Assembly: GCA_001189195.1 (NCBI GenBank)
Contig: LFCQ01000003.1
Span: 71,059-135,058 of the forward strand
Direction: 5' to 3'
DNA length: 64,000 bases
DNA from: Parcubacteria bacterium C7867-007
Lineage (GTDB): Bacteria; Patescibacteriota; Minisyncoccia; Phycocordibacterales; Phycocordibacteraceae
Made by a program: the position numbers and the translations under genes. Numbering within the stretch: position 1 is the first letter of the stretch; each line of letters opens with the position of its first letter. This document shows, one piece after another, positions 14,150-58,076 of the stretch. The notes beneath the pieces are model-generated. The model did not search any database, was not told the DNA's origin, and saw nothing but the letters and a program-made list of their open reading frames with translations.

Positions 14150-14154
14150 ATATA

Positions 14155-14186
14155 AAAGTTCCCACGTCGTACCAGACAGCCAGAAA
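14155..14186 (+). repeat. Copy of the 30-nt repeat family (AAAGTTCCCACGTCGTACCAGACAGCCAGAAA). It forms the right boundary of the high-GC cassette.
   Basis: Direct repeat of 13639..13670; matches the array consensus ...CGTCGTMCCAGACNGCCAG.AAA. Confidence 0.7.
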
Positions 14187-14204
14187 TAGGGTACTATTTC
14201 TGGA

Positions 14205-24572: not shown

Positions 24573-24613
24573 ATATAAAGAGAATACCTGACATCACGGC
24601 AACACAAGACAAG

Positions 24614-24635
24614 TTGTGTGTGGATAAGCACACAA
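24614..24635. promoter_or_regulatory. Candidate LexA operator: palindrome TTGTGTG-N8-CACACAA upstream of lexA, with additional ACACAAG half-sites nearby.
   Basis: 7-bp inverted repeat with an 8-bp spacer about 40-60 nt upstream of the lexA start. Several more CACAAG repeats lie at 24601-24657. Confidence 0.35.
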
Positions 24636-24744
24636 GTATATACACAACATACACAAGTTTATTTTATACAAAAGAAAACAGCCTCGTCACTTCACTCCTA
24701 AGAGTGAGAGCAACGAGGCCGTCTTTGAGGTCTCATGGTGTAGA

Positions 24745-25497
24745 TCAGGCGATGGCCCGATGCCGGCGGCGCAGAACGCTGCCGGCGAGGCCGAAGCCCA
24801 GGATCATCATCGCCCAGGTCGCCGGCTCGGGAACCGCCACGCCGCCCGGAGGCGTGATGATGATCGGCGGATCCAGGTCGTCCTGGAGACGCGGGAAGAT
24901 CTTCACGTTGTCCAGCAGCAGAGCTTCCCCCTGGAAGCCCGAGCTCGGCATGAAGCCGGCCGGGTTCGAGGCGAAGGTCGCACGAACGTTGATCTTGGCG
25001 ATGGTGTCGAAACCGGTCGCCGTGAAAACGAACGTTTGATAGCTCCGATAGTGGAGACCCGGCAGACTGCCGTCGAGGACGACGTCGCCGTGGTTGTCGA
25101 TGACCTGGAAGTCCAGGTCGATCGGGAACGTCGCCAGCATGGAGTTCATGTTCTGCCCGAAGTCGGCAGAGAGTGCGTTGAAGTAGCTCCCGTCGGCCAT
25201 CGTTATGCTGGTGTATCCCGTCGCGAACGGCGGCGAGAGGCCGGTGCCCCGAGGAGCCCAACCGTTGCCGGGAACCACCGTGCTGCTGATGCCGCTGGTG
25301 GCGCCGATGTAGGCGACGTGGACCCCGCTGGGGCTGGTGTAGGTCGTGTTGGCCGTGAGGGGGGGTTGCGACGCGAAGTCGGCCCCAATGAGCGACTCGA
25401 TAGGTGCGCCCAAGCCCACGAAGATTGCGCCATGCGCGGGAGCGGAAAAGGCCAGAGCAAGTGCGCCGGCCACCCCGAGATTCAGAAAATGTTTCAT
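24745..25497 (-). CDS. PEP-CTERM sorting-domain secreted protein (high-GC, foreign).
   Basis: Signal peptide MKHFLNLGVAGALALAFSAPAHGA. C-terminal VPEPATWAMMILGFGLAGSVLRRRH is a PEP-CTERM/exosortase signal. GC is far above the window background. Confidence 0.75.
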   Translation of the reverse strand: MKHFLNLGVAGALALAFSAPAHGAIFVGLGAPIESLIGADFASQPPLTANTTYTSPSGVHVAYIGATSGISSTVVPGNGWAPRGTGLSPPFATGYTSITMADGSYFNALSADFGQNMNSMLATFPIDLDFQVIDNHGDVVLDGSLPGLHYRSYQTFVFTATGFDTIAKINVRATFASNPAGFMPSSGFQGEALLLDNVKIFPRLQDDLDPPIIITPPGGVAVPEPATWAMMILGFGLAGSVLRRRHRAIA

Positions 25498-25876
25498 TTC
25501 ATACCCCAGTAGTTGGATGACTCGGTACGCCGAGTATCGGCCATTCCGTCGGATTTGATCCTGAGGAAGTGAGCGTTCTAAGGGCCATTTGTGGTCCACA
25601 GAACGCTCACTTCCTTCTAAAACCATGAGTTTTAAAAGGACCCGTAACTGGTCGTATCATACTAGAGTTGACATATCTGTCAAGACGTTGTGGACAGTAG
25701 ACTTCATGAAGTTAACTTGCACAAATCAATGATTTAGGTTATAAAAACAACAGCAGTTCTTTATATATTCCTGTTTTACCGCACCCAAAAGCACTTCTGA
25801 GTCTTCTTAGGAATATTCTTGGGTACGGTAAAACAGGACATTTGTCGTTCTGGTTCCTACCACCTTTGCAAAGGGA

Positions 25877-26542
25877 ATGTATATGAAGACTTTGATGTTG
25901 GCAGCTGCGGCTGCCCTAACGCTCTCGTTCGCGGGCGTCGCCAACTCGGCGGAGCTCTTGAACGGAGTCCACTACGGCACCGGCAACGACTACACGCCCG
26001 GCAACTGGACGGTCGCCACCGGTGGTGGGATCGAAACCGGTCTGCGGGCCCACGAAGTGTTCCAGGTGGCTCCGGCACCGTCGGGCAACCTCTACACCTT
26101 CGCCCTTGGCCAGACCATCGGCTTCGACTTCTCGATCGATCCGACCTTCGGCGGCACGCCTGTGGACCTCACGAGCGCGCTGATCACGATCACGAACCTC
26201 GGCACTGGCGGCGTCGCCAGCTTCAACCCGCTGCTCCTGCCCGACAACAGCATCGCTGGCAGCATCCAGAACAGCGAGCGGCTGAGCTTTGGCTTCCTGA
26301 ACGGTTCGCCAATCTTCAACGTCGGCGACATCGACTACAACAACGCCGTGAACAGCAGCTACCGCATCAACCTGACGGTTGCGGGCGGCGGCATCCGGTC
26401 CCTGCAAAACGAGATCCTCGTCCAGCAAGGCACCGGCGCGGTTCCCGAGCCGGCGACCTGGGCGATGATGATCCTGGGCTTCGGCATGGCCGGCGCCACG
26501 CTTCGGCGGCGCCACCCCGTCGCCGTCTCGGCGCGAACCTAG
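25877..26542 (+). CDS. PEP-CTERM sorting-domain secreted protein, paralog of the divergent neighbour. The start may be 25883.
   Basis: Signal peptide MKTLMLAAAAALTLSFAGVANSA. Its C-terminal VPEPATWAMMILGFGMAGATLRRRH is nearly identical to the neighbour's. Confidence 0.75.
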   Translation: MYMKTLMLAAAAALTLSFAGVANSAELLNGVHYGTGNDYTPGNWTVATGGGIETGLRAHEVFQVAPAPSGNLYTFALGQTIGFDFSIDPTFGGTPVDLTSALITITNLGTGGVASFNPLLLPDNSIAGSIQNSERLSFGFLNGSPIFNVGDIDYNNAVNSSYRINLTVAGGGIRSLQNEILVQQGTGAVPEPATWAMMILGFGMAGATLRRRHPVAVSART

Positions 26543-26591
26543 AACGACAATCGCGAAAGACTACCCAGATAGTCTACGCATCCAACAACTG

Positions 26592-26620
26592 GCCCCCTCC
26601 GATGGAGTGGGGCTTTTCTT
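26592..26620 (+). terminator. Rho-independent terminator after the PEP-CTERM gene.
   Basis: ggccccctccgatggagtggggc followed by ttttcttt. Confidence 0.6.
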
Positions 26621-26685
26621 TATGCATATCGAATTCAAAAGGCCGGCGGAGCAATCCGTCGGCCAATCTTTTATTTGCTGGAAGA

Positions 26686-26802
26686 CTATTTAGCCTGAGC
26701 TGCCTTACGAGCCATCTTCACCGCAATACGCTTTGCGGTCTTCTGTGGATGCTTGTGTGGGCGCTTTGGGCTCACACCCTGCTTGCTCTTGTTTCGTGAC
26801 AT
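26686..26802 (-). CDS. Small, highly basic protein of 38 aa (MSRNKSKQGVSPKRPHKHPQKTAKRIAVKMARKAAQAK).
   Basis: Internal Met of ORF 26686..26985. Followed by a minus-strand hairpin plus T-run at about 26637-26670. No family recognised. Confidence 0.3.
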   Translation of the reverse strand: MSRNKSKQGVSPKRPHKHPQKTAKRIAVKMARKAAQAK

Positions 26803-26821
26803 ATAGATTGATACTAACGAT

Positions 26822-27175
26822 TTAAAGCAATTCTGCAAGCACCGTTTTAAACTCTTCCATTCCAGCAGGCTTGGTGAGGTGTGCGTTGAAGCCAGCAGCA
26901 AGTGCCTTTTCTTTGTCTTCTGCTTGCCCGTATCCCGTGAGAGCAACGGCAGGGAAGGTGAATCCGTGGGCACGCAGCCCCACAATCACGTCATGTCCAC
27001 TCATGTCTGGCATACCAATATCTATAAACACGAGATCGGGAGTATATATACGCACATGTTCAAGTACCTCTTTGCCGGTATAGAGTGCTGAAGCATCCCA
27101 TCCTAGTGCGTTCAATAGACGAACGAGTCCATCTGCAGCCGCCTGGTTATCGTCCACCACAAGAAGCTTTTTCAT
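26822..27175 (-). CDS. Single-domain response regulator (CheY-like receiver).
   Basis: LLVVDDN, phospho-acceptor D in FIDIGMPDMSG and conserved T/K (LTGYG...LTKP). Confidence 0.85.
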   Translation of the reverse strand: MKKLLVVDDNQAAADGLVRLLNALGWDASALYTGKEVLEHVRIYTPDLVFIDIGMPDMSGHDVIVGLRAHGFTFPAVALTGYGQAEDKEKALAAGFNAHLTKPAGMEEFKTVLAELL

Positions 27176-27187
27176 AGGGGTATGGTA

Positions 27188-27955
27188 TCAGACAGAAGGA
27201 GCGATGAGGGAAAGAAGTTTGGCATGGTATTCAGAGCTACCCGCACACACAAATCCTCCGGTGCGTGTGTCATAGCGCTGGTCATTCCCGTGCACGTCAG
27301 AGGTTACCCCACCTGCTTCTTCCACAATCACTTTTGCTGCAGCACTGTCCCATGGGTTTCCGAGGGGAAGTACCACGCCCTGTAGCTGACCACTGGCAAC
27401 CATCATACTTGCATATACTGTTGAGCTATATGACAGACAACGAACATGCGCATCACGCGCACGATCAAAGAGTGTCATATCTTTAAATCCTCGGTGTCCA
27501 TCGGTTGCAATATAGCTGCGAGAGAGGTCGGTGTGCGATGAATTCGTAATGGGGAGGTTGTTTAGGAATGCTCCCTGGCCGCGTACCGCAGAGTACAGAC
27601 GCTTCATGTACGGGTCATACACCACACCAAGCACCGGTACTCCATCTTCAACCAATGCGAGTGAGAATACGTTCGTGGGCACACCACGGAGAAAGGCAGC
27701 TGTTCCATCGATAGGATCAAAGACCCACGCAGAGTTGCTTTCTTTCATCTGAGTACCTTCTTCCCCGATAAGACTATGCTCGGGATATGCTTCACTCAAC
27801 CTGCTAGTAACTAATTCTTGGATAAGCTCATCTGCTTTGGTGAGAGGAGAGTGGTCATCTTTAAAAGTATGCCGCATTCCTAATTCAAAATACTGCGTCA
27901 TGACCACACCAGCTTCTTGCGCGATTTCCTTCGCGATCTTTAGGTGCTGATCCAT
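27188..27955 (-). CDS. Inositol monophosphatase family protein (SuhB/IMPase).
   Basis: WVFDPIDGT and metal-binding EE...DP.DGT... motifs; 255 aa. Confidence 0.85.
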   Translation of the reverse strand: MDQHLKIAKEIAQEAGVVMTQYFELGMRHTFKDDHSPLTKADELIQELVTSRLSEAYPEHSLIGEEGTQMKESNSAWVFDPIDGTAAFLRGVPTNVFSLALVEDGVPVLGVVYDPYMKRLYSAVRGQGAFLNNLPITNSSHTDLSRSYIATDGHRGFKDMTLFDRARDAHVRCLSYSSTVYASMMVASGQLQGVVLPLGNPWDSAAAKVIVEEAGGVTSDVHGNDQRYDTRTGGFVCAGSSEYHAKLLSLIAPSV

Positions 27956-28033
27956 TTCGCAGCATTGTACCAGACTGTTTATGAAGAAAGACTAAACAGT
28001 AACCGCCCACCGAATTCTCGGTGGGCGGGGCGG

Positions 28034-44094: not shown

Positions 44095-45213
44095 TTGATT
44101 TATCAACTGTCTATGGCCGCAAAAAGCACCAAGAAAGCAGCACCTCAGAAGAAGACCGCCAGCAAGGCGGCTTCAAAGACGTCTACGGTGAAGCTCTCGT
44201 TCGACAGCACCGTGCTGGTAAAAAAGCTTCTTGCTGAAGTACCAGAGCGTGCCCGTGAGGTGCTGGTATACCGCTTTGGTCTTGGGGCCAGTGCAGACCG
44301 TGAGACACTTGAAGCTATTGGCGAACGCTGGAGCATCACGCGTGAGCGTGTACGCCAGATTGAGGCTGCTGGCCTAGACGCAATTCGCTCTTCTAAGGCG
44401 TTCAAGGATGCGGGAGCTGCATTCGACGATCTTAGCAATCACGTGCAGTCACTTGGCGCCATTGTTGAGGAAGATATCCTGCTCAAGGGACTTGCTGCTG
44501 ACGAAAAGGCACGTAATCGTTTCCGCTTCCTTCTCGTTGTAGGGAGTGCATTCTTCCGTGAACGTGAGACCGATGAGTTCTATGCTCGTTGGCACGTTGA
44601 TCATGCAACCGCACAGCTCGTGCACAAGGCCCTCACCCGCCTATACGCACAACTTTCAGATACTCAGGTACTTGCTGAGGGTGAAATGATGGATCGTTTC
44701 CTCGACGAACTTAAGGACATCAATGATGCATACCGAAACGAAGAGGTACTTAAGCGTTGGCTTTCTCTTTCGAAGACTATCTCTTCAAACCCTCTCGCTG
44801 AGTGGGGTCGTGCAGAAGCACCCGCTATCCGCACCAAGGGTATTCGTGACTACGCATACCTCGTAATCAAGCGTTCTGGTGCACCTATGCACTTCTCTGA
44901 TGTTGCAAAGTCTATTAGCCAGATGTTTGCAAAGGAAGCACATGTTGCAACCACTCATAACGAGCTGATCAAGGATGCTCGCTTCGTTCTCGTCGGTCGT
45001 GGCCTCTACGCACTATCTGAGTGGGGATACCAGCCGGGAGTTGTACGCGATGTTATTAAGACCGTACTTAAGAAAGAAGGCCCCCTTACGCGTGAACGCG
45101 TGATGGAAGAAGTGAAGAAGGTTCGATACGTGAAGGACAACACCATTCTTGTGAACCTTAACGATCCGCGATACTTCAAGCGCAATAAGAACGGTACCTA
45201 TACCGTAGCGTAA
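44095..45213 (+). CDS. Sigma-70 region-4 HTH fused to a C-terminal HARE-HTH domain.
   Basis: N-terminal VLVYRFGLGASADRETLEAIGERWSITRERVRQIEAAGL (sigma70_r4). C-terminal GAPMHFSDVAKSI...NELIKDARFVLVGRGLYALSEWGY (HARE-HTH pattern). The start may be the Met at 44113. Confidence 0.6.
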   Translation: MIYQLSMAAKSTKKAAPQKKTASKAASKTSTVKLSFDSTVLVKKLLAEVPERAREVLVYRFGLGASADRETLEAIGERWSITRERVRQIEAAGLDAIRSSKAFKDAGAAFDDLSNHVQSLGAIVEEDILLKGLAADEKARNRFRFLLVVGSAFFRERETDEFYARWHVDHATAQLVHKALTRLYAQLSDTQVLAEGEMMDRFLDELKDINDAYRNEEVLKRWLSLSKTISSNPLAEWGRAEAPAIRTKGIRDYAYLVIKRSGAPMHFSDVAKSISQMFAKEAHVATTHNELIKDARFVLVGRGLYALSEWGYQPGVVRDVIKTVLKKEGPLTRERVMEEVKKVRYVKDNTILVNLNDPRYFKRNKNGTYTVA

Positions 45214-45226
45214 TAGCTGAATCCAC

Positions 45227-45275
45227 GAGAACAGCGCGCATCCTAAAGATGCGCGCTGTTCTCTTGCTATACTTT
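45227..45275 (+). terminator. Rho-independent terminator.
   Basis: Long perfect hairpin gagaacagcgcgcatcctaaagatgcgcgctgttctc followed by a T-rich tract. Confidence 0.65.
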
Positions 45276-45279
45276 CCGC

Positions 45280-46650
45280 ATGAACCCATCGGATCTTCCG
45301 TTGATGAAGCTGATAAAGAAGACGCACGGAAATCTTGCAGGCAAGGGTCACTTTATTGATTGGGAACCTATCGCATGGACCTTTGGAATCTTGAACGTTC
45401 TGTTTATCTTTCTTGATCTTGGGCAAGCACTACGCAACTTTGAGTTCCTTCTCTTCTTCGCACCCCTCTGGCTTCCCGCAATAACTATTTATGCTGCAGC
45501 CAATCGTGTGGTGCAGTATCGTCGTGCAAAGTTCCTCGCAAAACAGAAATACGTATTGCTGGAACTAAAACTTCCTCGAGACACTAAGAAAACACCTCTT
45601 GCCATGGAGCTCTTCTTCTCCAACATGCACTTTGGTCCTGGAGAGTCCACAAACTATAAGGTTTATAAGCTGGGTAACATCCGACCATGGTGGTCATTTG
45701 AAATCGTGTCTCTCGGTGGACAGGTGCATTTCTATATATGGACCCGTGAGGCACATCGTCGCGGTATTGAAAGCTATCTCTATTCTCAGTATCCAGACAT
45801 GGAAATCATTGAGGCACCGGACTATAGCCTTATAACTGATCCCTCAGATGATGATCACAGTCTCTTTGGTGAAGAGTTTGTAAAATCTATTCCTGATGAG
45901 AAGGGTAGTCCAGATCCCTATCCGATAAAAACATATATTGAATACGGCTTGGACAAACCAGGAACAAAGCCAGAGGAGCAAATTGATCCACTTGCGCAGG
46001 TGATTGAGCTCCTTGGCTCACTGGGTCCGAAAGAACAATTCTGGATACAGATTATTATTCGCCAATCCAAGAAGGAGAAGTACGGAGAAGACTGGAAGAA
46101 GGTTGGGCTTTCAGAAATAGCAAAGATCCGTGAAGCAACAAGGCAGAAAGGCTCGTATGTTGATCCAGCAACCGGCAAGAAGGTTGAAACGGACGGCTTC
46201 CCGAACCCAACCAAGGGCCAACTTGAAACGATTGCGGACATTGAACGCAATATTAATAAGGCAGGCTTTGATGTGGGTATCCGCACCATATACTCAGGAC
46301 CAAAGGATGCGTATCAAGGATTTATGGCAAGCTTTGTTCTTGCGCTTTGGAAACCATTCGCTAATGAAACAGGGGCATCAATAAAACAAACAGGATCATA
46401 CTCTGCAGGGTTTAATGATTATCCCTGGGAGGATCCAAAGCGACTTGCGCATGACTTCGTTGAGAGGAAGATCGTGAAGTTGTATCGTCGTCGTGCGTAC
46501 TTTAATCAACCGTATGTTGGTCCCTGGTCCATTATGAGTAGCGAGGAGTTGGCAACACTCTTCCATGTACCATCGAGTACCATCAACACACCGGGGCTCC
46601 CACGCATGCAGTCTTCAACCACAAGCGCACCATCAAATCTTCCTGTGTAG
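45280..46650 (+). CDS. Large hypothetical protein with an N-terminal TM segment.
   Basis: 456 aa; 2 TM near the N-terminus, then a soluble domain. No family recognised. Confidence 0.5.
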   Translation: MNPSDLPLMKLIKKTHGNLAGKGHFIDWEPIAWTFGILNVLFIFLDLGQALRNFEFLLFFAPLWLPAITIYAAANRVVQYRRAKFLAKQKYVLLELKLPRDTKKTPLAMELFFSNMHFGPGESTNYKVYKLGNIRPWWSFEIVSLGGQVHFYIWTREAHRRGIESYLYSQYPDMEIIEAPDYSLITDPSDDDHSLFGEEFVKSIPDEKGSPDPYPIKTYIEYGLDKPGTKPEEQIDPLAQVIELLGSLGPKEQFWIQIIIRQSKKEKYGEDWKKVGLSEIAKIREATRQKGSYVDPATGKKVETDGFPNPTKGQLETIADIERNINKAGFDVGIRTIYSGPKDAYQGFMASFVLALWKPFANETGASIKQTGSYSAGFNDYPWEDPKRLAHDFVERKIVKLYRRRAYFNQPYVGPWSIMSSEELATLFHVPSSTINTPGLPRMQSSTTSAPSNLPV

Positions 46651-46651
46651 C

Positions 46652-47668
46652 ATGAGTATGCAAGAACAAATGCGAGTGCGTGCAGTACTGGTTCGCGCTC
46701 ATATTGACTCCCTTCTCAGAAGAACACCTAAAGCATATCTAGCAATACTCGCAGGGATGTTCATGGTGATATTCGTTCCGCTTTCAATTCTCTTTGTACC
46801 GTCATTCCAGTTTCCAAAAGGAGCATTGATTTCAATTCCTGCAAATAGTACCAGTGAAGAAATAGCAGAGCTGCTTGAGGATCAATACGTCATACGTAGT
46901 GCATTCCAGTTCCGTGTGTATACCCGACTCACGGGTGAAGACCGTGCTCTGCAATCGGGTATCTACGTGTTTGATCAGACACTGGGACTTGCGAGTATTG
47001 CACACCGTATTGCAAACGGGGAACACGGCATAGAAGAAACACGTGTCACCCTCACTGAGGGTATGACCAATCAAGACATGGCACGCACTCTTGCCGCTAC
47101 AGTTCCTGGTTTCGATACAAAGGAATTTCTTAAACACGCATCAACCAGCCAGGGGTATTTATTCCCTGATACGTACTTCATTCTCCCTGGCACTACTCCA
47201 GAAGAGATGGTTATGCGTTTGCGCGAGCACTTTGATACAAAAGTATCAACAATCCAAACGGAAATAGATGATTCAGGCAAGTCGCTTGATGCACTGGTGA
47301 CACTCGCATCAATACTTGAACGCGAAGCTCAGGGCATTGAAGATATGCGCATGGTTGCAGGTATTCTATACAATCGCCTACGCATAGATATGCCCCTGCA
47401 AGTGGATGCAGTATTTGGATACATACATGGAGAAAACGGATATACCCCAACCGCAGCAGATCTTGCAAGTGATTCTCCATACAATACGTATCGTGTGAAA
47501 GGCCTTCCTCCTAGCCCTATAGCTAATCCTGGGCTTGATGCACTTCGTGCAGCGGCAACCCCTACAAAATCTACGTATCTGTATTATTTAACAGGCAAGG
47601 ATGGCAAGATGCGCTACGCACGAACATTTGAAGAACATAAGCGCAACCGGGAGTTGTATTTAGATTAG
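46652..47668 (+). CDS. mltG: Second MltG/YceG-family endolytic transglycosylase.
   Basis: LASILEREAQG and YRVKGLPPSPIANPG motifs, N-terminal TM. Start taken at the Met just after the upstream stop. Confidence 0.85.
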   Translation: MSMQEQMRVRAVLVRAHIDSLLRRTPKAYLAILAGMFMVIFVPLSILFVPSFQFPKGALISIPANSTSEEIAELLEDQYVIRSAFQFRVYTRLTGEDRALQSGIYVFDQTLGLASIAHRIANGEHGIEETRVTLTEGMTNQDMARTLAATVPGFDTKEFLKHASTSQGYLFPDTYFILPGTTPEEMVMRLREHFDTKVSTIQTEIDDSGKSLDALVTLASILEREAQGIEDMRMVAGILYNRLRIDMPLQVDAVFGYIHGENGYTPTAADLASDSPYNTYRVKGLPPSPIANPGLDALRAAATPTKSTYLYYLTGKDGKMRYARTFEEHKRNRELYLD

Positions 47669-47693
47669 GTTCGATCCCTAGTCTGCCAGCAAA
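47667..47693 (+). repeat. tRNA 3'-half-like variant of the 30-nt repeat family (AGGTTCGATCCCTAGTCTGCCAGCAAA), overlapping the mltG stop codon.
   Basis: GGTTCGATCC T-loop-like start; TCTGCCAGCAAA is identical to the end of the array copies. Confidence 0.5.
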
Positions 47694-47716
47694 TCTTGCG
47701 TGCTAGCATACACAAC

Positions 47717-48112
47717 ATGGAACGAAGGCTTTCACTATCACTGAAACTGCTCGCTCTCTTCTTTTTCTGGTATACAGTTGTTTTTATTCTGTCAGTTCTG
47801 CCGTTGCTTGGTATTGGTCTCCCTTCGCTAATACAGCCGTCGTTCAGGGGTGTTGCATACGTATGGGATTTCGAACTATTCTTTACTGTCATCTATTTTG
47901 TTTGGGGAATCTATCTATGGAAAGCGTCCCGCACTCCTCAACAGCACAAGCTTTTTATTGATTTTACCCTTTGGGCAACTTTCGCGCATATTCTCGCTAT
48001 GTTTGCGGTTGGATTCATAAGGACGGAAGATTTTGGTCACCTAGTCATCGATGGAGTAGCCCTAGCAATACCTTTAGCACTTGTGACTATTTTTAGGTAT
48101 AGGCACGGATAA
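47717..48112 (+). CDS. Integral membrane protein, about 4 TM.
   Basis: Hydrophobic helices. The ORF-track start is 47696; the Met at 47717 is preferred. Confidence 0.5.
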   Translation: MERRLSLSLKLLALFFFWYTVVFILSVLPLLGIGLPSLIQPSFRGVAYVWDFELFFTVIYFVWGIYLWKASRTPQQHKLFIDFTLWATFAHILAMFAVGFIRTEDFGHLVIDGVALAIPLALVTIFRYRHG

Positions 48113-48141
48113 AGGTTCCAACATCGTCGCAGACTGCCAGC
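48113..48141 (+). repeat. Array repeat copy A (AGGTTCCAACATCGTCGCAGACTGCCAGC), directly after the stop of the membrane-protein gene.
   Basis: One of four near-identical copies at 48113, 48561, 48849 and 49058. Confidence 0.8.
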
Positions 48142-48142
48142 G

Positions 48143-48179
48143 ACAAAAGCAAAAGTCGCCCGATGGAATTCGGGCGACC
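48143..48179 (-). terminator. Minus-strand rho-independent terminator of array unit 3.
   Basis: Hairpin gtcgcccgaattccatcgggcgac followed on the minus strand by ttttgcttttg. Confidence 0.7.
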
Positions 48180-48206
48180 ACAAACAGGAAGTCCAGATCA
48201 GCTGGT

Positions 48207-48509
48207 TTACACAGCAATCTGTTGCGGAATGATCTGCACCCCGTTCCGCTGAGCAGGAATGTGGGCAAGGTCGGCAGGATCTTCGTACTGAACGACGATG
48301 ACCCATCCATGGTCATCGAGACGAAGTCCACCCCATTTTGTGAGTTGAAGAGGAAGAATCTCGAACAGGCGTGCCTGCACAACCTCCGCTACCTCATACG
48401 GGATGGGTTCAGGAAGAGAGATGGGTTCTCGCCTCCTGATGGCGACATGCACGGGAATTGAGAGCAAGGCGGCGAGCAATAGGATGTGCCAAGGTTCCAA
48501 TTGACCCAT
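48207..48509 (-). CDS. Small membrane-anchored protein, 100 aa, encoded inside repeat-array unit 3.
   Basis: ATG with a GGAGG Shine-Dalgarno 7 nt upstream. N-terminal TM WHILLLAALLSIPVHVAI, then a soluble domain. The ORF track starts it at an upstream TTG (48521). Confidence 0.5.
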   Translation of the reverse strand: MGQLEPWHILLLAALLSIPVHVAIRRREPISLPEPIPYEVAEVVQARLFEILPLQLTKWGGLRLDDHGWVIVVQYEDPADLAHIPAQRNGVQIIPQQIAV

Positions 48510-48540
48510 AGGGGCCTCCAATGATTGTTTCTAGGTGCAC

Positions 48541-48569
48541 TATATACGCAGTATGAACAAAGTCCCAAC
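48541..48569 (-). promoter_or_regulatory. Putative minus-strand promoter of array unit 3 (TTGGGA-16-TATATA).
   Basis: The -35 element overlaps the end of repeat copy B; the -10 is TATATA at 48546..48541. Confidence 0.35.
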
Positions 48570-48588
48570 ATCGTCCCAGACTGCCAGC
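48561..48588 (+). repeat. Array repeat copy B (AGTCCCAACATCGTCCCAGACTGCCAGC).
   Basis: 27 of 28 identical to the consensus. Confidence 0.8.
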
Positions 48589-48595
48589 AAATAAA

Positions 48596-48627
48596 TTCAT
48601 AAAAGAAAAACGCATCCGAAGATGCGT
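48596..48627 (-). terminator. Minus-strand rho-independent terminator of array unit 2.
   Basis: Hairpin acgcatcttcggatgcgt followed on the minus strand by ttttcttttatg. Confidence 0.75.
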
Positions 48628-48810
48628 CTGAAAACGGAGAAGAGCAGGAAGATGTGCTCTCCTGATGGAACCTTAAACAGACAACCGCGCCTACGGGCCT
48701 CCACTTAGGTGGGGAGGAACCAAGGCCATCTTTGTGACCTCAGGTCTGATCTCAGGTGCAACGGGCCATGAACCCCGTTGGGCAAGTTGGCATCTTCTCT
48801 TCCGCCTATC
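48600..48810 (-). ncRNA. Candidate non-coding RNA (array unit 2), about 210 nt, with its own promoter and terminator.
   Basis: Several stable hairpins (caacggg/cccgttg; ggaga.../...tctcc). No ORF longer than 13 aa with an RBS. Bounded by a promoter and an intrinsic terminator. Confidence 0.4.
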
Positions 48811-48817
48811 CGTTAGC

Positions 48818-48845
48818 ACCTTACCAAATCAGGTGTGCCGGTCAA
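48818..48845 (-). promoter_or_regulatory. Putative minus-strand sigma70 promoter of array unit 2 (TTGACC-16-TAAGGT).
   Basis: -35 at 48845..48840 and -10 at 48823..48818, immediately downstream (minus sense) of repeat copy C. Confidence 0.4.
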
Positions 48846-48848
48846 TCT

Positions 48849-48876
48849 GGTTCCAACATCGTCCCAGACGGCCAGC
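48849..48876 (+). repeat. Array repeat copy C (GGTTCCAACATCGTCCCAGACGGCCAGC).
   Basis: Near-identical to copies A, B and D. Confidence 0.8.
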
Positions 48877-48878
48877 TA

Positions 48879-48919
48879 TAAATAAAGAAAACCCCTTCCA
48901 TGACATTGGTCGGGGTTTT
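48879..48919 (-). terminator. Minus-strand rho-independent terminator of array unit 1.
   Basis: Hairpin aaaacccc...ggggtttt followed on the minus strand by ctttatttat. Confidence 0.65.
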
Positions 48920-49016
48920 GCACTGGATTTTGGTACACCAGTGTTCTCTCTTCGTGTCTTGTCAGGACAGTGCCAATGGGGGCATTGGAACGAGAGGCCA
49001 CATTAACTACAGTGGT
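48880..49016 (-). ncRNA. Candidate non-coding RNA (array unit 1), about 135 nt.
   Basis: Driven by a near-consensus promoter. Contains hairpins (ccaatgcccccattgg). No plausible ORF. Ends at an intrinsic terminator. Confidence 0.4.
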
Positions 49017-49022
49017 AAATCC

Positions 49023-49051
49023 ATCATAACAGCACAGATACTGTTTGTCAA
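49023..49051 (-). promoter_or_regulatory. Minus-strand sigma70 promoter of array unit 1 (TTGACA-17-TATGAT).
   Basis: -35 TTGACA at 49051..49046, 17-nt spacer, -10 TATGAT at 49028..49023, immediately after repeat copy D. Confidence 0.55.
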
Positions 49052-49057
49052 TAGTCC

Positions 49058-49085
49058 GGTTCCAACATTGTCCCAGACTGTCAGG
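49058..49085 (+). repeat. Array repeat copy D (GGTTCCAACATTGTCCCAGACTGTCAGG).
   Basis: 25 of 28 match the consensus. Confidence 0.75.
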
Positions 49086-49116
49086 AATAGAAAAACGCCA
49101 ACACAGAGTGAAGGCG
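49086..49116 (-). terminator. Minus-strand terminator-like hairpin of array unit 0.
   Basis: Hairpin aagcgccttcactctgtgttggcgtt followed on the minus strand by tttttctatt. The stem is imperfect. Confidence 0.45.
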
Positions 49117-49280
49117 CTTTAGTGGCTTGTAAGCCAAATATGCATGGAGTGTTAACTCTCCACGGGGCTAGCCAGTATGGGTCCCATATCCATACCGCGT
49201 CTGGATTCCGTGGAGATCCGATCCGACCTGAGCTTCTTACATCCCCAACCATCACTACACTAGCAACGGTAGCTCCAAGA
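49095..49280 (-). ncRNA. Candidate structured non-coding RNA (array unit 0), about 180 nt.
   Basis: Nested perfect stems (tctccacgg...ccgtggaga; ccag-gtatgg...ccatac-ctgg). Putative promoter TTGACA at 49309..49304. The only ORF runs through the terminator, repeat and promoter, so it is rejected. Confidence 0.35.
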
Positions 49281-49369
49281 GCAATTTAACCAAATAGTGT
49301 ATTTGTCAATAGTAGTATCAGTTACAGCATATTTCCAGACCTCTAATTAAAAGGTGGTATTGTTTTACT

Positions 49370-49807
49370 ATGAACGTAAAGGAATTCTCTAAAGCATACT
49401 TCTGGCCAACAAAACTACGGGTACTCGTATTCATAGTGCTGAGTATCTACGTAACTCTTAGTACATTGTTCCTTGCGCCGTTTATGAGCAAGGAGCTCGC
49501 ACCCCAGGAACTCACGGGGCTAGAGCAAGCAGGAATTGTTGCAACATACCCTGCAAAGGTGTTTGCTCAGTCATTCATATATATTTCTTCACACTTCCTT
49601 GCTGAGAAAGTAACTCTAAGAGAATTGATGGAGCAACCGAGCAATACCGGACTACCCGTTACTCCCAACGCATCAATAGAGAGCGCCACTATCACCCAAG
49701 CAAGCCCAATCGGATTTGCAACCGGTGCAATACTTGAATCTCTCACACTCTATCTTCTTGCGTGTTTAATCTCATTTGCACAAAAGCCAAGGAAAAAGAC
49801 TGTGTAG
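49370..49807 (+). CDS. Membrane protein, 2-3 TM.
   Basis: 145-aa ORF with an N-terminal TM LRVLVFIVLSIYVTLSTLFLA and a C-terminal TM. Confidence 0.45.
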   Translation: MNVKEFSKAYFWPTKLRVLVFIVLSIYVTLSTLFLAPFMSKELAPQELTGLEQAGIVATYPAKVFAQSFIYISSHFLAEKVTLRELMEQPSNTGLPVTPNASIESATITQASPIGFATGAILESLTLYLLACLISFAQKPRKKTV

Positions 49808-49836
49808 AAATCGGTTGTTTAGGGTATGGTATCGCT

Positions 49837-50877
49837 ATGGATTCCATAGCAGGCAAGAACATATTTGTAGGACTATCTGGAGGCGTGGACTCTGCGGTTT
49901 CTGCTGCGCTCCTACAAAAACAAGGTGCTGAGGTAACAGGGGTTTTCATTAAGGGATGGTATCCCCCTGGTATGCCGTGTACCTGGGCACAAGATCGTCG
50001 CGATGCCATGCGGGTCGCAGCACACCTCGGTATTCCATTTCATACTCTTGATGCATCAAAAGAATACAAGCAGGGAGTTATCGACTATCTGATCTCTGAA
50101 TACGCTGCAGGAAGAACACCTAACCCAGATATCATGTGCAATCGTGAGGTTAAGTTCGGAGCCTTCTATCGCTTTGCAAAAGAGCACGGTGCAGACTTCA
50201 TAGCTACAGGCCACTACGCACAGGCGAGGGAGGGTAGTCTAATGCGTGGTGTAGACAGCTCAAAGGACCAAAGCTATTTCTTGTGGGCAGTACCTAAAGA
50301 AGCAATGACACAAACTCTTTTCCCCGTTGGCGGAATACCTAAAAGAGAAGTGCGTATTCTCGCACAAAAGTTTGATCTTCCTGTTGCAGAAAAGAAGGAT
50401 AGTCAGGGAATATGTTTCCTTGGTTCCATTTCTGTTGATGAGTTTCTTAGAAAGGAACTGGAAACAACCGGAGGTGACGTGCTCGATGAGGAAGGAAAGA
50501 AGATTGGTACCCATGATGGTGCCGTGCTGCACACCCTTGGAGAACGTATTGTTCCTCATGGAGCAGAAAGTGGTCCTTGGTATGTAATACGGAAAGATCT
50601 CAACACGAACACACTAACAGTGCGCCATGGAAACGCTGCGCTGGAGGTGCCACCCAATACATTGAAGCTCCGTGAGACTAACTGGTTTAATACAGAAGCT
50701 CTCATGGGAACGATTCAGGCGCAGTATCGCTATCACGGTACAGTGATTACTGGGAGTTTCGATCTAGAAACCAATACCTTCACTCCTGAAGGATCCTTTA
50801 AAGAACCTGTTGCGTCCGGACAATCACTTGTCTTGTATCTTGGGGATACCTGTTTGGGGGGTGGTATCATCGAGTAA
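49837..50877 (+). CDS. mnmA: tRNA-specific 2-thiouridylase MnmA.
   Basis: PP-loop IFVGLSGGVDSAV and the MnmA catalytic Cys region (GICFLG). Start taken at the internal Met MDSIAGKN. Confidence 0.9.
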   Translation: MDSIAGKNIFVGLSGGVDSAVSAALLQKQGAEVTGVFIKGWYPPGMPCTWAQDRRDAMRVAAHLGIPFHTLDASKEYKQGVIDYLISEYAAGRTPNPDIMCNREVKFGAFYRFAKEHGADFIATGHYAQAREGSLMRGVDSSKDQSYFLWAVPKEAMTQTLFPVGGIPKREVRILAQKFDLPVAEKKDSQGICFLGSISVDEFLRKELETTGGDVLDEEGKKIGTHDGAVLHTLGERIVPHGAESGPWYVIRKDLNTNTLTVRHGNAALEVPPNTLKLRETNWFNTEALMGTIQAQYRYHGTVITGSFDLETNTFTPEGSFKEPVASGQSLVLYLGDTCLGGGIIE

Positions 50878-51708
50878 ATGCCAGACATCGTTAAAGCAGA
50901 CGGGACCATTGAAACATTCGTTCCTGAAAAACTAGAGGAGTCCCTGCGTCGTGCCGGTGCTGGTGCAGGTGCTGCAGAGAAGATCCGTCGCACCATTGAA
51001 GCAAGTATTGCTCCTGGTTCAGAGAGTAGCGATATATATAAGCGTGCGTTCCAGATGCTCCGTCGCGAAGGACGGGCTGCAGCAGCCCGCTATAGCTTGC
51101 GTCGTGCACTGTTTGAGTTTGGTCCTTCTGGCCATCCTTTCGAGGACTTTGTTTCAGAACTCTTTAAGAAAGAGGGGTGGAAGATTGAGACCCGTCGTTT
51201 GATTCCTGGAAAGTGCGTCACTCATGAGGTGGATGTATATGCGACACGGGGTAACGAGACGTTAGCGGCGGAGCTTAAGTATCATAATGACCCAGGGTAC
51301 AAAACAGATGTGAAGGTGGCTTTGTATGTGAAAGCACGCTTCGATGATATCTGGCAGTGTGATCCTGCGGTGGATAAATCGTGTCCTATTGATCGTGGAT
51401 ACCTCGTCACCAACACAAAGTTCACGTCACAGGCAGTGGATTACGCAACGTGTTCTGGATTAAATCTGCTTGGGTGGAGTTATCCGCATCATGGAAATCT
51501 CTATGACCGCATCATTGCGAGCGGTCTCTATCCGATCACTGCTCTCACCACACTCCGCAAGGCAGAGAAGCGCCTTCTTATCGATAGGAATATCTCCACC
51601 ACTGATCTGCTCAGACAGCATCGTGAACTGTTGCGTGAAATTGGAGTGACCCCAGAACGTGTGGGTTCTATCATCGCCGAAATAGAGACTTTGAACGATA
51701 CCCATTAG
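50878..51708 (+). CDS. ATP-cone domain fused to an Mrr-like (PD-(D/E)xK) restriction-endonuclease domain.
   Basis: N-terminal MPDIVKADGTIETFVPEKLEESLRRAG (ATP-cone pattern). Central FEDFVSELFKKEGWKIE...HEVDVYA...AELKYH (Mrr_cat-like D/E-x-K). About 100 aa of C-terminal extension. Confidence 0.55.
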   Translation: MPDIVKADGTIETFVPEKLEESLRRAGAGAGAAEKIRRTIEASIAPGSESSDIYKRAFQMLRREGRAAAARYSLRRALFEFGPSGHPFEDFVSELFKKEGWKIETRRLIPGKCVTHEVDVYATRGNETLAAELKYHNDPGYKTDVKVALYVKARFDDIWQCDPAVDKSCPIDRGYLVTNTKFTSQAVDYATCSGLNLLGWSYPHHGNLYDRIIASGLYPITALTTLRKAEKRLLIDRNISTTDLLRQHRELLREIGVTPERVGSIIAEIETLNDTH

Positions 51709-51728
51709 AGCAGTTATACTAGAGGTAT

Positions 51729-52523
51729 ATGGCAGAGTTCCGCAAGCAATACAATCCAAACCGTAGTTCAGACTGGAACTATGGTGGTTCTAAGTGGCGT
51801 CTCTCACGCTCAAAGATTGAGCTCTTCACAGAATGTCCTCGCTGCTTCTATTTAGATAACAAACTTGGTACCGCACGTCCTCGTGGTCCTGCCTTCACTC
51901 TTAACATTGCAGTTGATGCGCTTCTTAAGAAGGAGTTTGATGTACACCGTATAGACGGAACGAAGCATCCCCTCATGGAGACATACGACATCAATGCCGT
52001 ACCGTTCAAACATAAGAACATGAACACGTGGCGTGAGAACTTTGAAGGTGTGGAGTTCAAACACAAAGAAACAGGCTTCACTATTTCAGGTGCAGTGGAT
52101 GATATCTGGGTTAATCCCGCAGGTGAATTGATCGTGGTGGATTATAAAGCAACGTCTAAAGAAGGAACGATCACCACACTCGCAGACTCATCGTGGAACG
52201 AACAGTATCAACGACAAATGGGAGTGTATCAGTGGCTCCTTCGTAACAACGGCTTTACGGTTTCTCCTATGGGCTATTTTGTGTATGCAAATGCGCACAG
52301 CGATAAGTCCGCCTTTGATGGACAATTGGAGTTTGAAGTAACGGTGGTTCCCTGTGAAGGGAATACTGATTGGATTGATGACGTACTTCCCAAGATAAAG
52401 GAAACTCTAGAAAGTGGAGCCCTACCGCCAGTGGGGGAAGGGTGTGAGTACTGCGTATATCGGGAAGCTTCAGGAAAGAAGTTGCAGGAGATACACAAAA
52501 AGAGTTTGCAGGTGCAGAAGTAG
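51729..52523 (+). CDS. PD-(D/E)xK nuclease with Cas4/AddB-type cysteines (RecB-family exonuclease-like).
   Basis: N-terminal CPRC, catalytic core VDDIW...LIVVDYKAT (D...D/E-Y-K) and C-terminal CEYC. No cas genes nearby. Confidence 0.55.
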   Translation: MAEFRKQYNPNRSSDWNYGGSKWRLSRSKIELFTECPRCFYLDNKLGTARPRGPAFTLNIAVDALLKKEFDVHRIDGTKHPLMETYDINAVPFKHKNMNTWRENFEGVEFKHKETGFTISGAVDDIWVNPAGELIVVDYKATSKEGTITTLADSSWNEQYQRQMGVYQWLLRNNGFTVSPMGYFVYANAHSDKSAFDGQLEFEVTVVPCEGNTDWIDDVLPKIKETLESGALPPVGEGCEYCVYREASGKKLQEIHKKSLQVQK

Positions 52524-56156: not shown

Positions 56157-58076
56157 ATGACCGTCTCAGACGTACGCAAACGATTCCTTGAATTCTATAA
56201 GGCACGTGGCCACTCTATTATTCCCTCGGCACCTATCGTGCCAGGCAATGATCCAACCACCCTGTTTACCTCCTCGGGTATGCAGCCGCTCGTCCCGTAC
56301 CTCTTAGGCAAGGACCATCCAGAGGGAACACGCATTGTTAACTCACAAATGAGCTTCCGTGCAGGAGACATTGAAGAGGTGGGGGACAACCGTCACACCA
56401 CCTTCTTTGAGATGCTTGGTAACTGGTCTCTGGGAGATTATTTCAAGAAGGAACAAGTACCTTGGGTATTTGAATTCCTCACCAGCAAAGAAGAGGGTCT
56501 TGGGCTTGATCCTGAGAAACTATATGTAACGGTATTCGGTGGAGATACCGATGCAAATATGCCAGAAGATACTGAAGCAGTTGAGCTATGGAAAGGTCTC
56601 TATGCTGCAAAAGGAATCACTGCTGAGTTCGCAAACATCGGTTCAGAGGAAGAAGGGTATGAACGAGGTATGCACGGAAACGAGCGTATCTTTGCGTATG
56701 GCGCAAAGAAGAACTGGTGGAGCCGCGCTGGTGTACCAAGCAACATGCCTGCAGGGGAGCCAGGTGGTCCAGACTCTGAAGTCTTCTATGACTTTGGTCT
56801 TCCACATGATGAGAAGTGGGGTGCACATTGTCATCCTAATTGTGACTGTGGCCGATTTGTAGAGATTGGTAACTCAGTGTTCATGCAGTTCATCAAGAAT
56901 GAAGATGGTTCATTCTCGAACCTTCCAAAGCAAAACGTAGACTTCGGTGGTGGACTTGAACGCCTCACCTTCGCCACCATTGGTGTCCCTGATGCCTTTC
57001 TTATAGATGTATTTGATGCGGCACGTGAGGTACTTGAAACGCGCACCTCTATAAAGTATGGAGCTGAAGAAGGGTCAACTAAATCATTCCGTATCATCTT
57101 GGACCACATGCGTGCAGCAGCATTTATGCTAGCTGAAGGAGTTACCCCATCAAATACTGAGGCAGGGTACGTGCTTCGTCGATTAATTCGTCGTGCACTG
57201 CGTGAAGCAGATCGTTTAAATATTCAGGAGCCGGTGCTTGCTGAAGTGGCACAGGGGTACGGAAAAGCATACGCGGATCACTACCCACACGTACTAGAAA
57301 AGGCACAAGTTATCCATGATGAGCTTGCAAAGGAAGAGGATCAGTTCCGTAAGACACTTAAGAATGGTTTGAAGGAGTTTGAGAAACTCACCGCAAAGGG
57401 AACAATTGAGCCAGAGGATGCGTTCACCCTCTTCACCACCTATGGATTCCCGGTAGAGATGACGGAGGAACTTGCTAACGAACGTGAGCTAGAACTAGAT
57501 CTCACGGCGGTTATGAAGCTCATGGAGCAACATCAGGAGACCTCACGTGCAGGTGGTGCACAGCGCTTTGCAGGTGGTCTTGCAGACCATGCAGAGCAAA
57601 CTGTTCGCTATCACACTACCCATCACATCCTTCTTGCAGCACTTCAGAAAGTACTTGGTGACGAGGTGAAGCAGCGTGGTTCCAACATCACCTCAGAGCG
57701 TCTGCGTATAGACTTCTCTGCACCCGCAAAGATGACGGACGAACAGAAAGCAGAGGTGGAACGTATCGTTAACGACGTGATCTATCAGGACCTTCCTGTT
57801 ACTCGCACCGTGATGCCAAAGACTGAGGCAGAGCAGCTTGGTGCACAGATGGAGTTCGGTGTTAAGTATCCAGACATGGTTTCCGTATATTCTGTCGGTC
57901 CTATTCATGCAACGGAAGAGAACCCGGATATTCCAAATGCGTTCTCTCTAGAGTTCTGTGGTGGTCCACATGTAACTAATACAAAAGAGATTCATGAGGG
58001 TGATAGAAAATTCAAGATACAGAAGGAAGAAGCCGTTGCTTCAGGGGTACGTCGTATCAAAGCCGTGCTGGTGTAA
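56157..58076 (+). CDS. alaS: Alanyl-tRNA synthetase, short form (catalytic, tRNA-recognition and editing domains; no C-Ala/DHHA1 tail).
   Basis: N-terminal FLEFYKARGHSIIPSAPIVP...FTSSGM and an editing-domain HTTHHILLAALQKVLG (HxxxH). 639 aa against about 870 in typical bacteria. Confidence 0.85.
   Translation: MTVSDVRKRFLEFYKARGHSIIPSAPIVPGNDPTTLFTSSGMQPLVPYLLGKDHPEGTRIVNSQMSFRAGDIEEVGDNRHTTFFEMLGNWSLGDYFKKEQVPWVFEFLTSKEEGLGLDPEKLYVTVFGGDTDANMPEDTEAVELWKGLYAAKGITAEFANIGSEEEGYERGMHGNERIFAYGAKKNWWSRAGVPSNMPAGEPGGPDSEVFYDFGLPHDEKWGAHCHPNCDCGRFVEIGNSVFMQFIKNEDGSFSNLPKQNVDFGGGLERLTFATIGVPDAFLIDVFDAAREVLETRTSIKYGAEEGSTKSFRIILDHMRAAAFMLAEGVTPSNTEAGYVLRRLIRRALREADRLNIQEPVLAEVAQGYGKAYADHYPHVLEKAQVIHDELAKEEDQFRKTLKNGLKEFEKLTAKGTIEPEDAFTLFTTYGFPVEMTEELANERELELDLTAVMKLMEQHQETSRAGGAQRFAGGLADHAEQTVRYHTTHHILLAALQKVLGDEVKQRGSNITSERLRIDFSAPAKMTDEQKAEVERIVNDVIYQDLPVTRTVMPKTEAEQLGAQMEFGVKYPDMVSVYSVGPIHATEENPDIPNAFSLEFCGGPHVTNTKEIHEGDRKFKIQKEEAVASGVRRIKAVLV

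Follow-up and report, generated by a model that had tools for sequence, protein, structure and literature searches.

A putative array of small gene cassettes with tRNA-Gln-like entry sites in the chromosome of a Parcubacteria bacterium

In integrons, promoterless and co-oriented cassettes are read from the Pc promoter, and each cassette carries an attC site, an imperfect palindrome of 57-141 nt that is conserved in structure and holds the R''/R' cores (RYYYAAC ... GTTRRRY). The integrative mobile elements exploiting Xer (IMEXs) at dif and the pdif modules of Acinetobacter plasmids are small, have no recombinase of their own, carry sites of ~28 nt, are moved by the housekeeping recombinase of the host and can form tandem arrays. 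Sites of the dif type consist of two inverted 11-nt arms around a 6-nt spacer, and pdif sites alternate in orientation. Other elements target tRNA genes, among them the tycheposons of Prochlorococcus, which are defined by an integrase at one end that faces inward (bioRxiv 10.1101/2020.12.28.424599). The Patescibacteria (candidate phyla radiation, CPR) have tiny genomes with few recognisable mobile elements and many unknown genes, and how they acquire accessory genes is an open question. Here, a stretch of 64,000 nt from Parcubacteria bacterium C7867-007 (contig LFCQ01000003.1, positions 71,059 to 135,058; “the window” below) was analysed. The region at 47668-49369 of the window, between the genes for MltG and MnmA, is probably a chromosomal array of small mobile gene cassettes, which resembles an integron array but has a different kind of site.

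The array between the MltG and MnmA genes

Four copies of a 28-nt direct repeat, with which a preliminary description of this DNA had begun, were present on the + strand (cores at 48114-48141, 48561-48588, 48849-48876 and 49058-49085). They carried 1, 2, 1 and 3 mismatches to the quoted 28-mer, respectively, and no match was expected by chance in dinucleotide-preserving shuffles. Three of the copies and the spacings of 288 and 209 nt were as first given, but the first copy started at 48114 instead of 48113 and the first spacing was 447 instead of 448 nt. The array had also been described as starting at 48113 and as consisting of minus-strand units throughout; its start, at 47668, lies ~450 nt to the left of this, and its first cassette is on the + strand. 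The order of the features in the window was an entry site formed by an orphan tRNA-Gln 3' end (an end without a tRNA body), four cassettes each closed by a copy of the repeat (hereafter “the motif”), a 284-nt segment without a closing motif, a core 145-aa gene and MnmA.

47668-47694, + strand: entry site 1, orphan tRNA-Gln 3' end GGTTCGATCCCTAGTCTGCCAGCAAAT (T-arm, acceptor strand and discriminator), identical to genuine tRNA-Gln ends
47695-48141, + strand: cassette 1, DUF6632 membrane-protein gene at 47717-48112 (Pfam and Joint Genome Institute (JGI) gene call), closed by motif copy 1
48142-48588, - strand: cassette 2, gene for a 100-aa protein at 48509-48207 (list of open reading frames (ORFs) and JGI gene call), closed by motif copy 2
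48589-48876, - strand: cassette 3, candidate non-coding RNA gene of ~205 nt (~48811 to 48605; comparison with locus L042), closed by motif copy 3
48877-49085, - strand: cassette 4, likely non-coding RNA of ~135 nt (~49016 to 48882; promoter and fold), closed by motif copy 4
49086-49369, - strand: distal flank, structured, with a terminator-like hairpin at ~49096-49120 and a U-run (fold z = -2.2)

The -10-like hexamer TAGCAT of cassette 1 (47704-47709) lies only 7 nt before the ATG, so the DUF6632 mRNA looks leaderless. This gene was absent from the syntenic loci of the relatives. The ORF of cassette 2 was preceded by a GGAGG Shine-Dalgarno sequence, the good ribosome-binding site noted earlier, and was also called by JGI; its protein belonged to no Pfam family. 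Its promoter was present as TTGGGA-18-TATAGT (48568-48539, - strand) and not, as first read, with a 16-nt spacer and TATATA. The four terminators predicted earlier were recovered, at 48179-48154 (cassette 2) and 48629-48608 (cassette 3) by the terminator scan, and at 48919-48889 (cassette 4) and ~49096-49120 (distal flank) as folded hairpins with U-runs.

Cassette 3 had a homolog in locus L042, and the two were 83% identical over their whole length. Identity rose to 91% within the transcribed body and fell to 56% around the promoter. The proposed promoter TTGACC-16-TAAGGT (48845-48818, - strand) fell below the threshold of the promoter scan, but both hexamers were kept in the homolog, with a scrambled spacer. 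The two copies differed by indels of 1, 1, 4 and 1 nt, which excluded a coding frame because such indels would break it, and by a compensatory A-U to G-C change in the terminator stem. Together with the fold (z = -1.9), the comparison makes cassette 3 a good case for a non-coding RNA gene, whose two host genomes are unrelated. A CCUCCCC segment of this RNA (48605-48811, - strand; 2847-3117 in L042) could pair with Shine-Dalgarno sequences. Cassette 4 is likely a non-coding RNA as well: its promoter TTGACA-17-TATGAT (49051-49023, - strand) was recovered by the scan with 11/12 matches and a TG extension, and its fold (z = -3.2) includes a terminal hairpin with a U-run.

Cassettes 3 and 4 and the distal flank contained no credible ORF and folded moderately better than shuffled sequences, in line with the structured non-coding units of the preliminary description. 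The Rfam gathering scan of the whole window returned only tRNA-Asn, and an E-value scan of 47500-50000 returned only chance-level matches, which excluded known RNA families. The distal flank had been counted as a fifth full unit. However, its promoter is doubtful (14-15-nt spacer) and no terminal motif was found in 49086-49369 with the profile, only a relic resemblance (CATATTTCCAGAC at 49330-49345). The segment is thus either what remains of a decayed cassette or DNA that natively flanks the core 145-aa gene. Only the repeat itself was common to the units of the array.

The motif, the tRNA-Gln ends and the cassette junctions

A degenerate form of the repeat with 18 specified bases was scanned against one genome per bacterial or archaeal species. 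This check, proposed in the preliminary description, showed the 28-mer to be part of a motif found in at least 115 loci (the retrieved stretches L001-L115) from about 85 species-level assemblies. Among the matches listed, the hosts were nearly all Patescibacteria, Paceibacteria/Paceibacterota, Parcubacteria, and Kaiser-, Adler-, Nomura-, Wolfe- and Zambryskibacteria; only two assemblies had non-CPR labels, and both look like chance matches or misbinning. The positional profile of 153 sites gave a full motif of ~35 nt, A.AAAR-GTTCCAACATCGTCCCAGAC-n-GCCAGC-AA, in which the positions left as N in the search pattern were 78-99% conserved, except position 8 (A in 68%) and position 20 (fully variable). 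An A-rich TAnAAA-like stretch was seen upstream, and the flanks were unconserved apart from A-richness downstream. A profile hidden Markov model detected 236 copies across the retrieved loci. The consensus folded at 0 and -0.3 kcal/mol on its two strands, no better than shuffled sequences, and neither dyad symmetry nor inverted GTTRRRY/RYYYAAC cores were visible by direct reading, which bears out the earlier statements that the repeat is not palindromic, not dif-like and has no attC cores. A further partial match at 57678 was rejected as chance, being located inside the long coding ORF 56157-58076 (AlaRS by its motifs). The motif was absent from the viral contigs, phages and plasmids searched, which ruled out its reading as a phage or plasmid attachment site (attP). 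A full-text literature search, which covered few subscription journals, found neither the motif sequence nor CPR cassette arrays or tRNA-Gln integration in Patescibacteria, an absence that is not proof.

The motif was closely associated with tRNA-Gln. ARAGORN detected 47 tRNAs in the 115 loci, and 33 of them were tRNA-Gln (22 UUG and 11 CUG). All 33 genes were intact and each was followed on the same strand by one or more cassettes and the motif, 317-2,486 nt downstream; the motif was never found on the opposite strand. When tRNA-Gln ends, orphan ends and motif copies were aligned with MAFFT, AGGTTCGAT-----CCCTAGTCTCCCAGCAA was set against AGGTTCCAACATCGTCCCAGACTGCCAGCAA. The motif and the tRNA-Gln end have GGTTC and TCCC.AG.CT.CCAGCAA in common and differ by a fixed 5-nt expansion (T-loop) and 2-3 fixed substitutions, and the T-arm hairpin is lost in the motif (0 kcal/mol vs -2.3 kcal/mol for the tRNA end). 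The alignment identifies the motif as a derivative of the T-arm/acceptor 3' segment of tRNA-Gln and not as a copy of it.

The entry sites, in turn, were identical to the tRNA-Gln 3' end and in many loci were part of a genuine tRNA. Two orphan ends without a tRNA body were found in the window, at 47668 (MltG) and 13452 (YchF). In the first of them, the right half equals the motif and the left half is a canonical T-arm; it overlaps the MltG stop codon TAG (47666-47668) and was kept at the same position in L008, L071 and L121-124. An equivalent of the second was found after YchF in L066, where it was followed by three motifs. Elsewhere, orphan ends followed a gene whose C-terminus matched that of the AlaRS-like ORF of the window and a coiled-coil gene. 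The arrays begin either at a genuine tRNA-Gln gene or, as in the window, at an orphan copy of its 3' end that sits on a core-gene stop codon (MltG, YchF). Two points go beyond the preliminary description: the core of the repeat is derived from the 3' end of tRNA-Gln, and the array is headed by an orphan tRNA-Gln end that overlaps the stop codon of MltG. In L007 (~3060-3126, - strand), an orphan tRNA-Gln 3' end was located directly after the apparent 3' end of another tRNA gene, so the landing pads may extend beyond the ends of protein genes.

The junctions of the array were revealed by comparison with relatives. The window and Parcubacteria C7867-008 were 79% identical as far as 47701, where the orphan site ends, and 77% identical again from 49384, at the 145-aa gene that precedes MnmA, and nothing aligned in between. 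The comparison of this spot across relatives, also proposed earlier as a check, showed 10, 3, 1 or 0 motif copies, and the cassette content was unrelated between them.

Window: orphan site and four motifs
Parcubacteria C7867-008: orphan site and 10 motifs over about 7.1 kb (adjacent blocks L008 and L063)
Species with MltG P0010: orphan site and three motifs
RYN_391: orphan site, one motif plus a degenerate copy
Species with MltG P0004 (L125-L130): orphan site and motif both absent

Two small genes, of 100 aa (- strand) and 192 aa (+ strand), were present at this spot in the P0004 species; they are either an array with its sites erased or an independent insertion. The YchF hotspot varied as well, with two motifs in the window vs three or more in L066. 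A sharp junction was seen between L019 and L085, which were 94% identical over 1,250 nt, as far as ...CTGCCAGCA / ...GGTTCGATACCTAGTCTGCCAGCA in the orphan site, and unrelated from the next base. A 140-nt non-coding unit followed in one and a 340-nt unit with a small ORF in the other, each closed by a full motif with differing sequence beyond.

Cassettes were also found in more than one array. The unit at 48578-48880 of the window, which contains cassette 3, is the one with a homolog in L042, a single-cell genome; there it had other neighbours and was flanked by a tRNA-like entry site on one side and a motif on the other. A HAD-hydrolase cassette was common to L002, where it was third after tRNA-Gln, and L076 (78.6% identity over 765 nt); the homology ran from just past the CCAGC of the left site to ...GCAATATT past its own right motif, and none was found outside. 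Another cassette took the second place behind tRNA-Gln(UUG) in L061, and the coordinates put it immediately behind tRNA-Gln(CUG) in L082; L014 and L084 also had one cassette in common. Because the divergence of L019 from L085 and the limits of the L002/L076 homology both fall at motif edges, a cassette consists of variable DNA closed by its own motif at the + strand 3' end, with the junction at the 3' edge of the motif. The preliminary description had taken the repeat for an element that precedes minus-strand promoters, but it closes a unit instead. Its proposal of serially accreted cassettes with an att-like core is supported by the motif in so many loci, the variable units at the same site and the units that recur in other arrays.

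These observations can be arranged into a simple model. A recombinase supplied in trans would join the motif of a free cassette either to another motif or to an entry site of the tRNA-Gln type, with the joint inside or beside the ...CCAGCAA edge that they share. Every insertion would add “cassette + motif”, so that the arrays would grow by accretion, and the reverse reaction would excise cassettes. Since no recombinase was found, we can only infer this mechanism from the conservation of the site, the variable arrays and the shared cassettes. A different explanation is that the cassettes are swapped by ordinary homologous recombination after DNA uptake, with the 28-37-nt motif copies as short homology anchors and no dedicated recombinase, and that the motif persists as the cassettes bearing it spread. 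Such uptake would fit the natural competence of Patescibacteria. No recombinase is linked to the arrays, the motif copies are nearly identical across genomes and could serve as anchors, and junctions at the ends of shared sequence are also predicted. Nevertheless, this explanation is unlikely. The identity between the tRNA-Gln end and the motif is short and interrupted, too little for exchange of the RecA type, yet all 33 arrays at tRNA-Gln genes start there. In addition, the strict orientation and the near-invariant 27-mer across families whose proteins are 50-78% identical point to a protein that reads the sequence.

Cassette genes, the search for a recombinase and neighbouring features

The 236 sites delimit 136 distinct cassettes of 151-1,857 nt (median 535). 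One dominant ORF was found in 85 of the 136, on the + strand in 48 and on the - strand in 37 (44% inverted). No two of the 85 proteins were detectably homologous. Pfam assigned 33 families with one occurrence each, including aldo-keto reductase, HAD, DAG kinase, GNAT, NUDIX, HD, glyoxalase, YCII, PspC and HTH, and most of the proteins had no family. Sixteen short cassettes had no ORF, and terminator-like hairpins were present in half of these. Genes co-oriented with the motif typically had an extended -10 box (TGnTAnnnT, TGnTATAAT, GGTACACT, GATATACT) that ends 5-8 nt before the ATG and no Shine-Dalgarno sequence, so leaderless mRNAs seem to be common among them; this pattern was seen in L001-L115 and at 14188-14207 and 47695-47719 of the window. 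Other cassette genes (at 13734 and 48509 of the window) had strong GGAGG sites. Inverted genes had a terminator beside the preceding motif and a promoter beside their own motif, the arrangement that the preliminary description had noted. By these signals, each cassette is a self-contained transcription unit, with one small protein gene or non-coding RNA gene in either orientation, a predicted promoter of its own and usually its own terminator.

A further possibility is that the motif, common to many small accessory genes, acts in regulation at the level of DNA or RNA; it could be an operator, a site for an activator, an insulator or the promoter used by a special polymerase or sigma factor. 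The ATG of the next + strand gene was often 19-28 nt past the motif, the -35 boxes of the minus-strand promoters in the window were beside or inside it, and the A-rich TAnAAA-like stretch stands before it. However, the adjoining genes face both ways, the + strand genes have their own extended -10 boxes, and anything from about 0 to 60 nt or more separates the motif from the -10 box; the motif is not a fixed part of the promoters. Direct reading and the variable spacing also excluded a sigma-54, extracytoplasmic function (ECF) or sigma-70 promoter. Moreover, synteny and cassette homology stop at the motif, which is also linked to the 3' ends of tRNA-Gln, and an invariant, non-palindromic site of 27 nt far exceeds known operators or sigma-factor promoters in length. 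A regulatory role is very improbable. The alternative considered in the preliminary description, a paralogous small-RNA locus with a shared regulator site, was not borne out either, as the units are unrelated, lie in both orientations and have varying distances between motif and promoter.

Several results weigh against the reading of the region as an array of mobile cassettes. The first concern the enzyme, which was searched for by regular expressions and phmmer in all six-frame ORFs of the 115 loci and the window. The window contained no signature of a tyrosine or serine recombinase, the Pfam search of the 85 cassette proteins revealed no recombinase and no integrase fragments, and no recombinase was found upstream of the tRNA-Gln genes, where core genes resembling DnaX, Dus and PyrG were located. 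Only two ordinary Xer-type genes were found in the 115 loci (L018 and L028), and both were below the integron-integrase cut-offs. Furthermore, the motif is unstructured and non-palindromic and has its junction at the edge, unlike the core sites of tyrosine or serine recombinases or a folded attC. The model also leaves unexplained how orphan tRNA-Gln ends came to sit on core-gene stop codons. Lastly, the arrays were identical within species over many samples (contigs with identical MltG, P0010 and P0004), the apparent variant L130 was identical to L125, and neither excised circles nor precise gain or loss of a single cassette between near-identical genomes was seen. Because the arrays are identical within species, any activity is rare, and the system is sedentary on short time scales.

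This stability bears on another explanation, in which the arrays are dead scars of larger integrase-bearing islands, tycheposon- or prophage-like, at tRNA-Gln and the motif is a displaced tRNA end without present function. The sites do derive from a tRNA 3' end, and tandem tRNA integration that pushes older elements outward and leaves partial tRNAs has been documented for tycheposons (bioRxiv 10.1101/2020.12.28.424599). Dead scars should decay, yet across about 85 species the motif hardly varies and departs from the tRNA end in one and the same way, with the 5-nt expansion, and the 136 cassettes, with a median of 535 nt and one intact gene each, hold no fragments of an integrase. Intact cassettes are common to different arrays together with their motif, and the motif is missing from the viral contigs, phages and plasmids. 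We consider the origin as dead scars improbable, and the reading as an array of mobile cassettes is retained.

If the cassettes are mobile, the enzyme must act in trans. The host Xer-type tyrosine recombinase was the only candidate seen, and its assignment, by analogy with the IMEX and pdif elements, is a guess. The Xer-type gene of L018 (4162-5103), which meets the cut-off of an XerA-type model, ends 2 nt from the truncated motif that closes a one-cassette array and sits in a conserved core neighbourhood; in the 115 loci, no other recombinase gene was physically linked to the motif. Clustering of all ORFs near the sites yielded core genes only and no enriched family. A PD-(D/E)XK/Cas4-like nuclease encoded downstream of the array was rejected as a candidate enzyme, as it occurred in 5 of the 115 loci and reflected synteny only. 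The gene for this type of nuclease forms a pair at 50878-52523 with that for a protein with an ATP-cone and an Mrr-type restriction-endonuclease fold; the pair is kept downstream of MnmA in relatives, and a homolog of the nuclease was found beside a tRNA-Gln gene in L048. Scans of metagenomes with a 24-mer of unit 3 gave no match, nor did retrieval of the locus based on MltG. In Logan SRR2043728, assembled independently from the same organism, two contigs end and start on motif copy 3 (48850-48878) with a 29-nt overlap. This break suggests an assembly-graph branch, which could come from population heterogeneity or from a motif common to co-occurring genomes, and it was not used as evidence.

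The recurrence of the repeat elsewhere in the window, around the ORF 13734-14099, was also correct as first described, and it marks a second array behind YchF.

13452-13474, + strand: entry site 2, orphan tRNA-Gln 3' end GGTTCGAATCCTAGTCTCCCAGC, 2 nt past the YchF stop codon
From 13475, + strand: first part, hairpin-bearing non-coding unit of 165 nt; its closing motif, at 13640-13670, is diverged
To 14187, + strand: second part, ORF 13734-14099 with a terminator, closed by the motif at 14151-14187

The ORF 13734-14099 encodes 121 aa, has a Shine-Dalgarno sequence and belongs to no Pfam family, and a CPDase-like gene (14205-14741) comes 21 nt after the last motif. Three further features of the window were recorded. 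A relic-like partial motif, GCAGCATTGTACCAGACTG, was found at 27957-27985 between inositol-monophosphatase and NUDIX-like genes, beside a strong hairpin, and may be the decayed site of an old insertion. The stretch 24000-27200 has a G+C content of 0.52-0.59, vs about 0.48 elsewhere in the window, and encodes LexA, a PEP-CTERM-tagged protein, a 326-aa protein without family and a response regulator; it may be foreign, is without clear flanking motif copies, and no recombinase was found in the GC-rich 24-27 kb stretch. At 44095-46650, a gene for a 372-aa protein with an N-terminal sigma-70 region 4 and a HARE-HTH domain is followed by one for a 456-aa DUF8128 protein, and both genes were directly upstream of MltG in every relative examined.

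Significance and comparison with known systems

Beyond the single locus, the chances seem about even that the Paceibacteria (CPR) have an undescribed gene-capture system, analogous to integrons but independent of them, with a sequence-defined, unstructured tag of ~35 nt derived from the tRNA-Gln 3' end, landing pads at tRNA-Gln genes or at orphan ends on core-gene stop codons, self-expressed cassettes (often leaderless mRNAs or non-coding RNAs) and an unlinked recombinase that could be a host Xer-type enzyme or of a new class that acts at the edge of an asymmetric site. If so, this dedicated cassette system, spread over about 85 or more species, would be one of the main ways in which genes move among Patescibacteria, and the 27-nt core would serve as a sequence handle for harvesting accessory genes and RNAs from metagenomes, as attC-targeted methods do for integrons. 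The asymmetric, unstructured, tRNA-derived site, with its junction at the edge and no linked enzyme, points either to a housekeeping recombinase in a new role or to an enzyme not yet known. In annotation, the arrays explain clusters of tiny orphan genes and non-coding RNAs downstream of tRNA-Gln, MltG, YchF and other core genes, as well as assembly breaks in the same places.

The array shares with clustered regularly interspaced short palindromic repeats (CRISPR) its direct repeats of 28-37 nt in one orientation with unique sequence between them. Unlike CRISPR spacers, which are uniform and about 26-72 nt long, the segments between the repeats are of variable length, 151-1,857 nt, and carry genes, promoters and terminators, and the repeat is common to about 85 species. 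No cas genes were seen among the scanned ORFs of the window and the cassette proteins, apart from one sub-threshold Cas_Cas4 match (a PD-(D/E)XK nuclease). A CRISPR array was excluded by the size and content of the spacers, as the preliminary description had also concluded. The array resembles the Xer-dependent elements (IMEX, pdif) in being composed of small modules without a recombinase and with copies of a ~28-nt site. It differs from dif and pdif in that the motif has no dyad symmetry and no potential to form a hairpin or cruciform, and all copies are direct.

The likeness to integrons, especially the sedentary chromosomal ones, is closer. It consists in an ordered series of single-gene cassettes, each with its own 3' site, behind a distinct entry site that heads the array, in a highly diverse content of mostly unknown function (GNAT, glyoxalase, NUDIX) with some non-coding cassettes, and in the presence of the same cassette in different arrays. 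However, no integron integrase gene (intI) was present beside the array, and none upstream of the tRNA-Gln entry sites. The site here is only ~35 nt, unstructured, conserved in sequence and without the R''/R' cores; the cassettes have their own promoters, with 37 of 85 inverted; and the 3' end of tRNA-Gln serves as the entry site.

The array also resembles tRNA-targeting islands and tycheposons in its insertion at the 3' end of a tRNA gene, which leaves the tRNA intact, and in its tRNA-derived direct repeats. As in tRNA islands and in the accretion of cis-mobilizable elements (CIMEs) and integrative and conjugative elements (ICEs) in streptococci (PMC5704250), repeated insertion would lead to tandem arrays at conserved hotspots, and as with CIMEs, the non-autonomous units would need an enzyme supplied in trans. 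Unlike tycheposons and islands, the units are 0.15-1.9 kb long, hold one gene and carry no integrase, excisionase or replication genes; the repeat is a fixed derivative with a 5-nt expansion and not a copy of the tRNA end, and orphan entry sites lie on the stop codons of protein genes. The system is thus outside what defines both integrons and tRNA-targeted islands, because it has no linked integrase, no folded attC, cassettes with their own promoters facing both ways and tiny units without mobility genes. Site-specific cassette arrays are known as a kind, and there is a real chance that the enzymology of this one is new.

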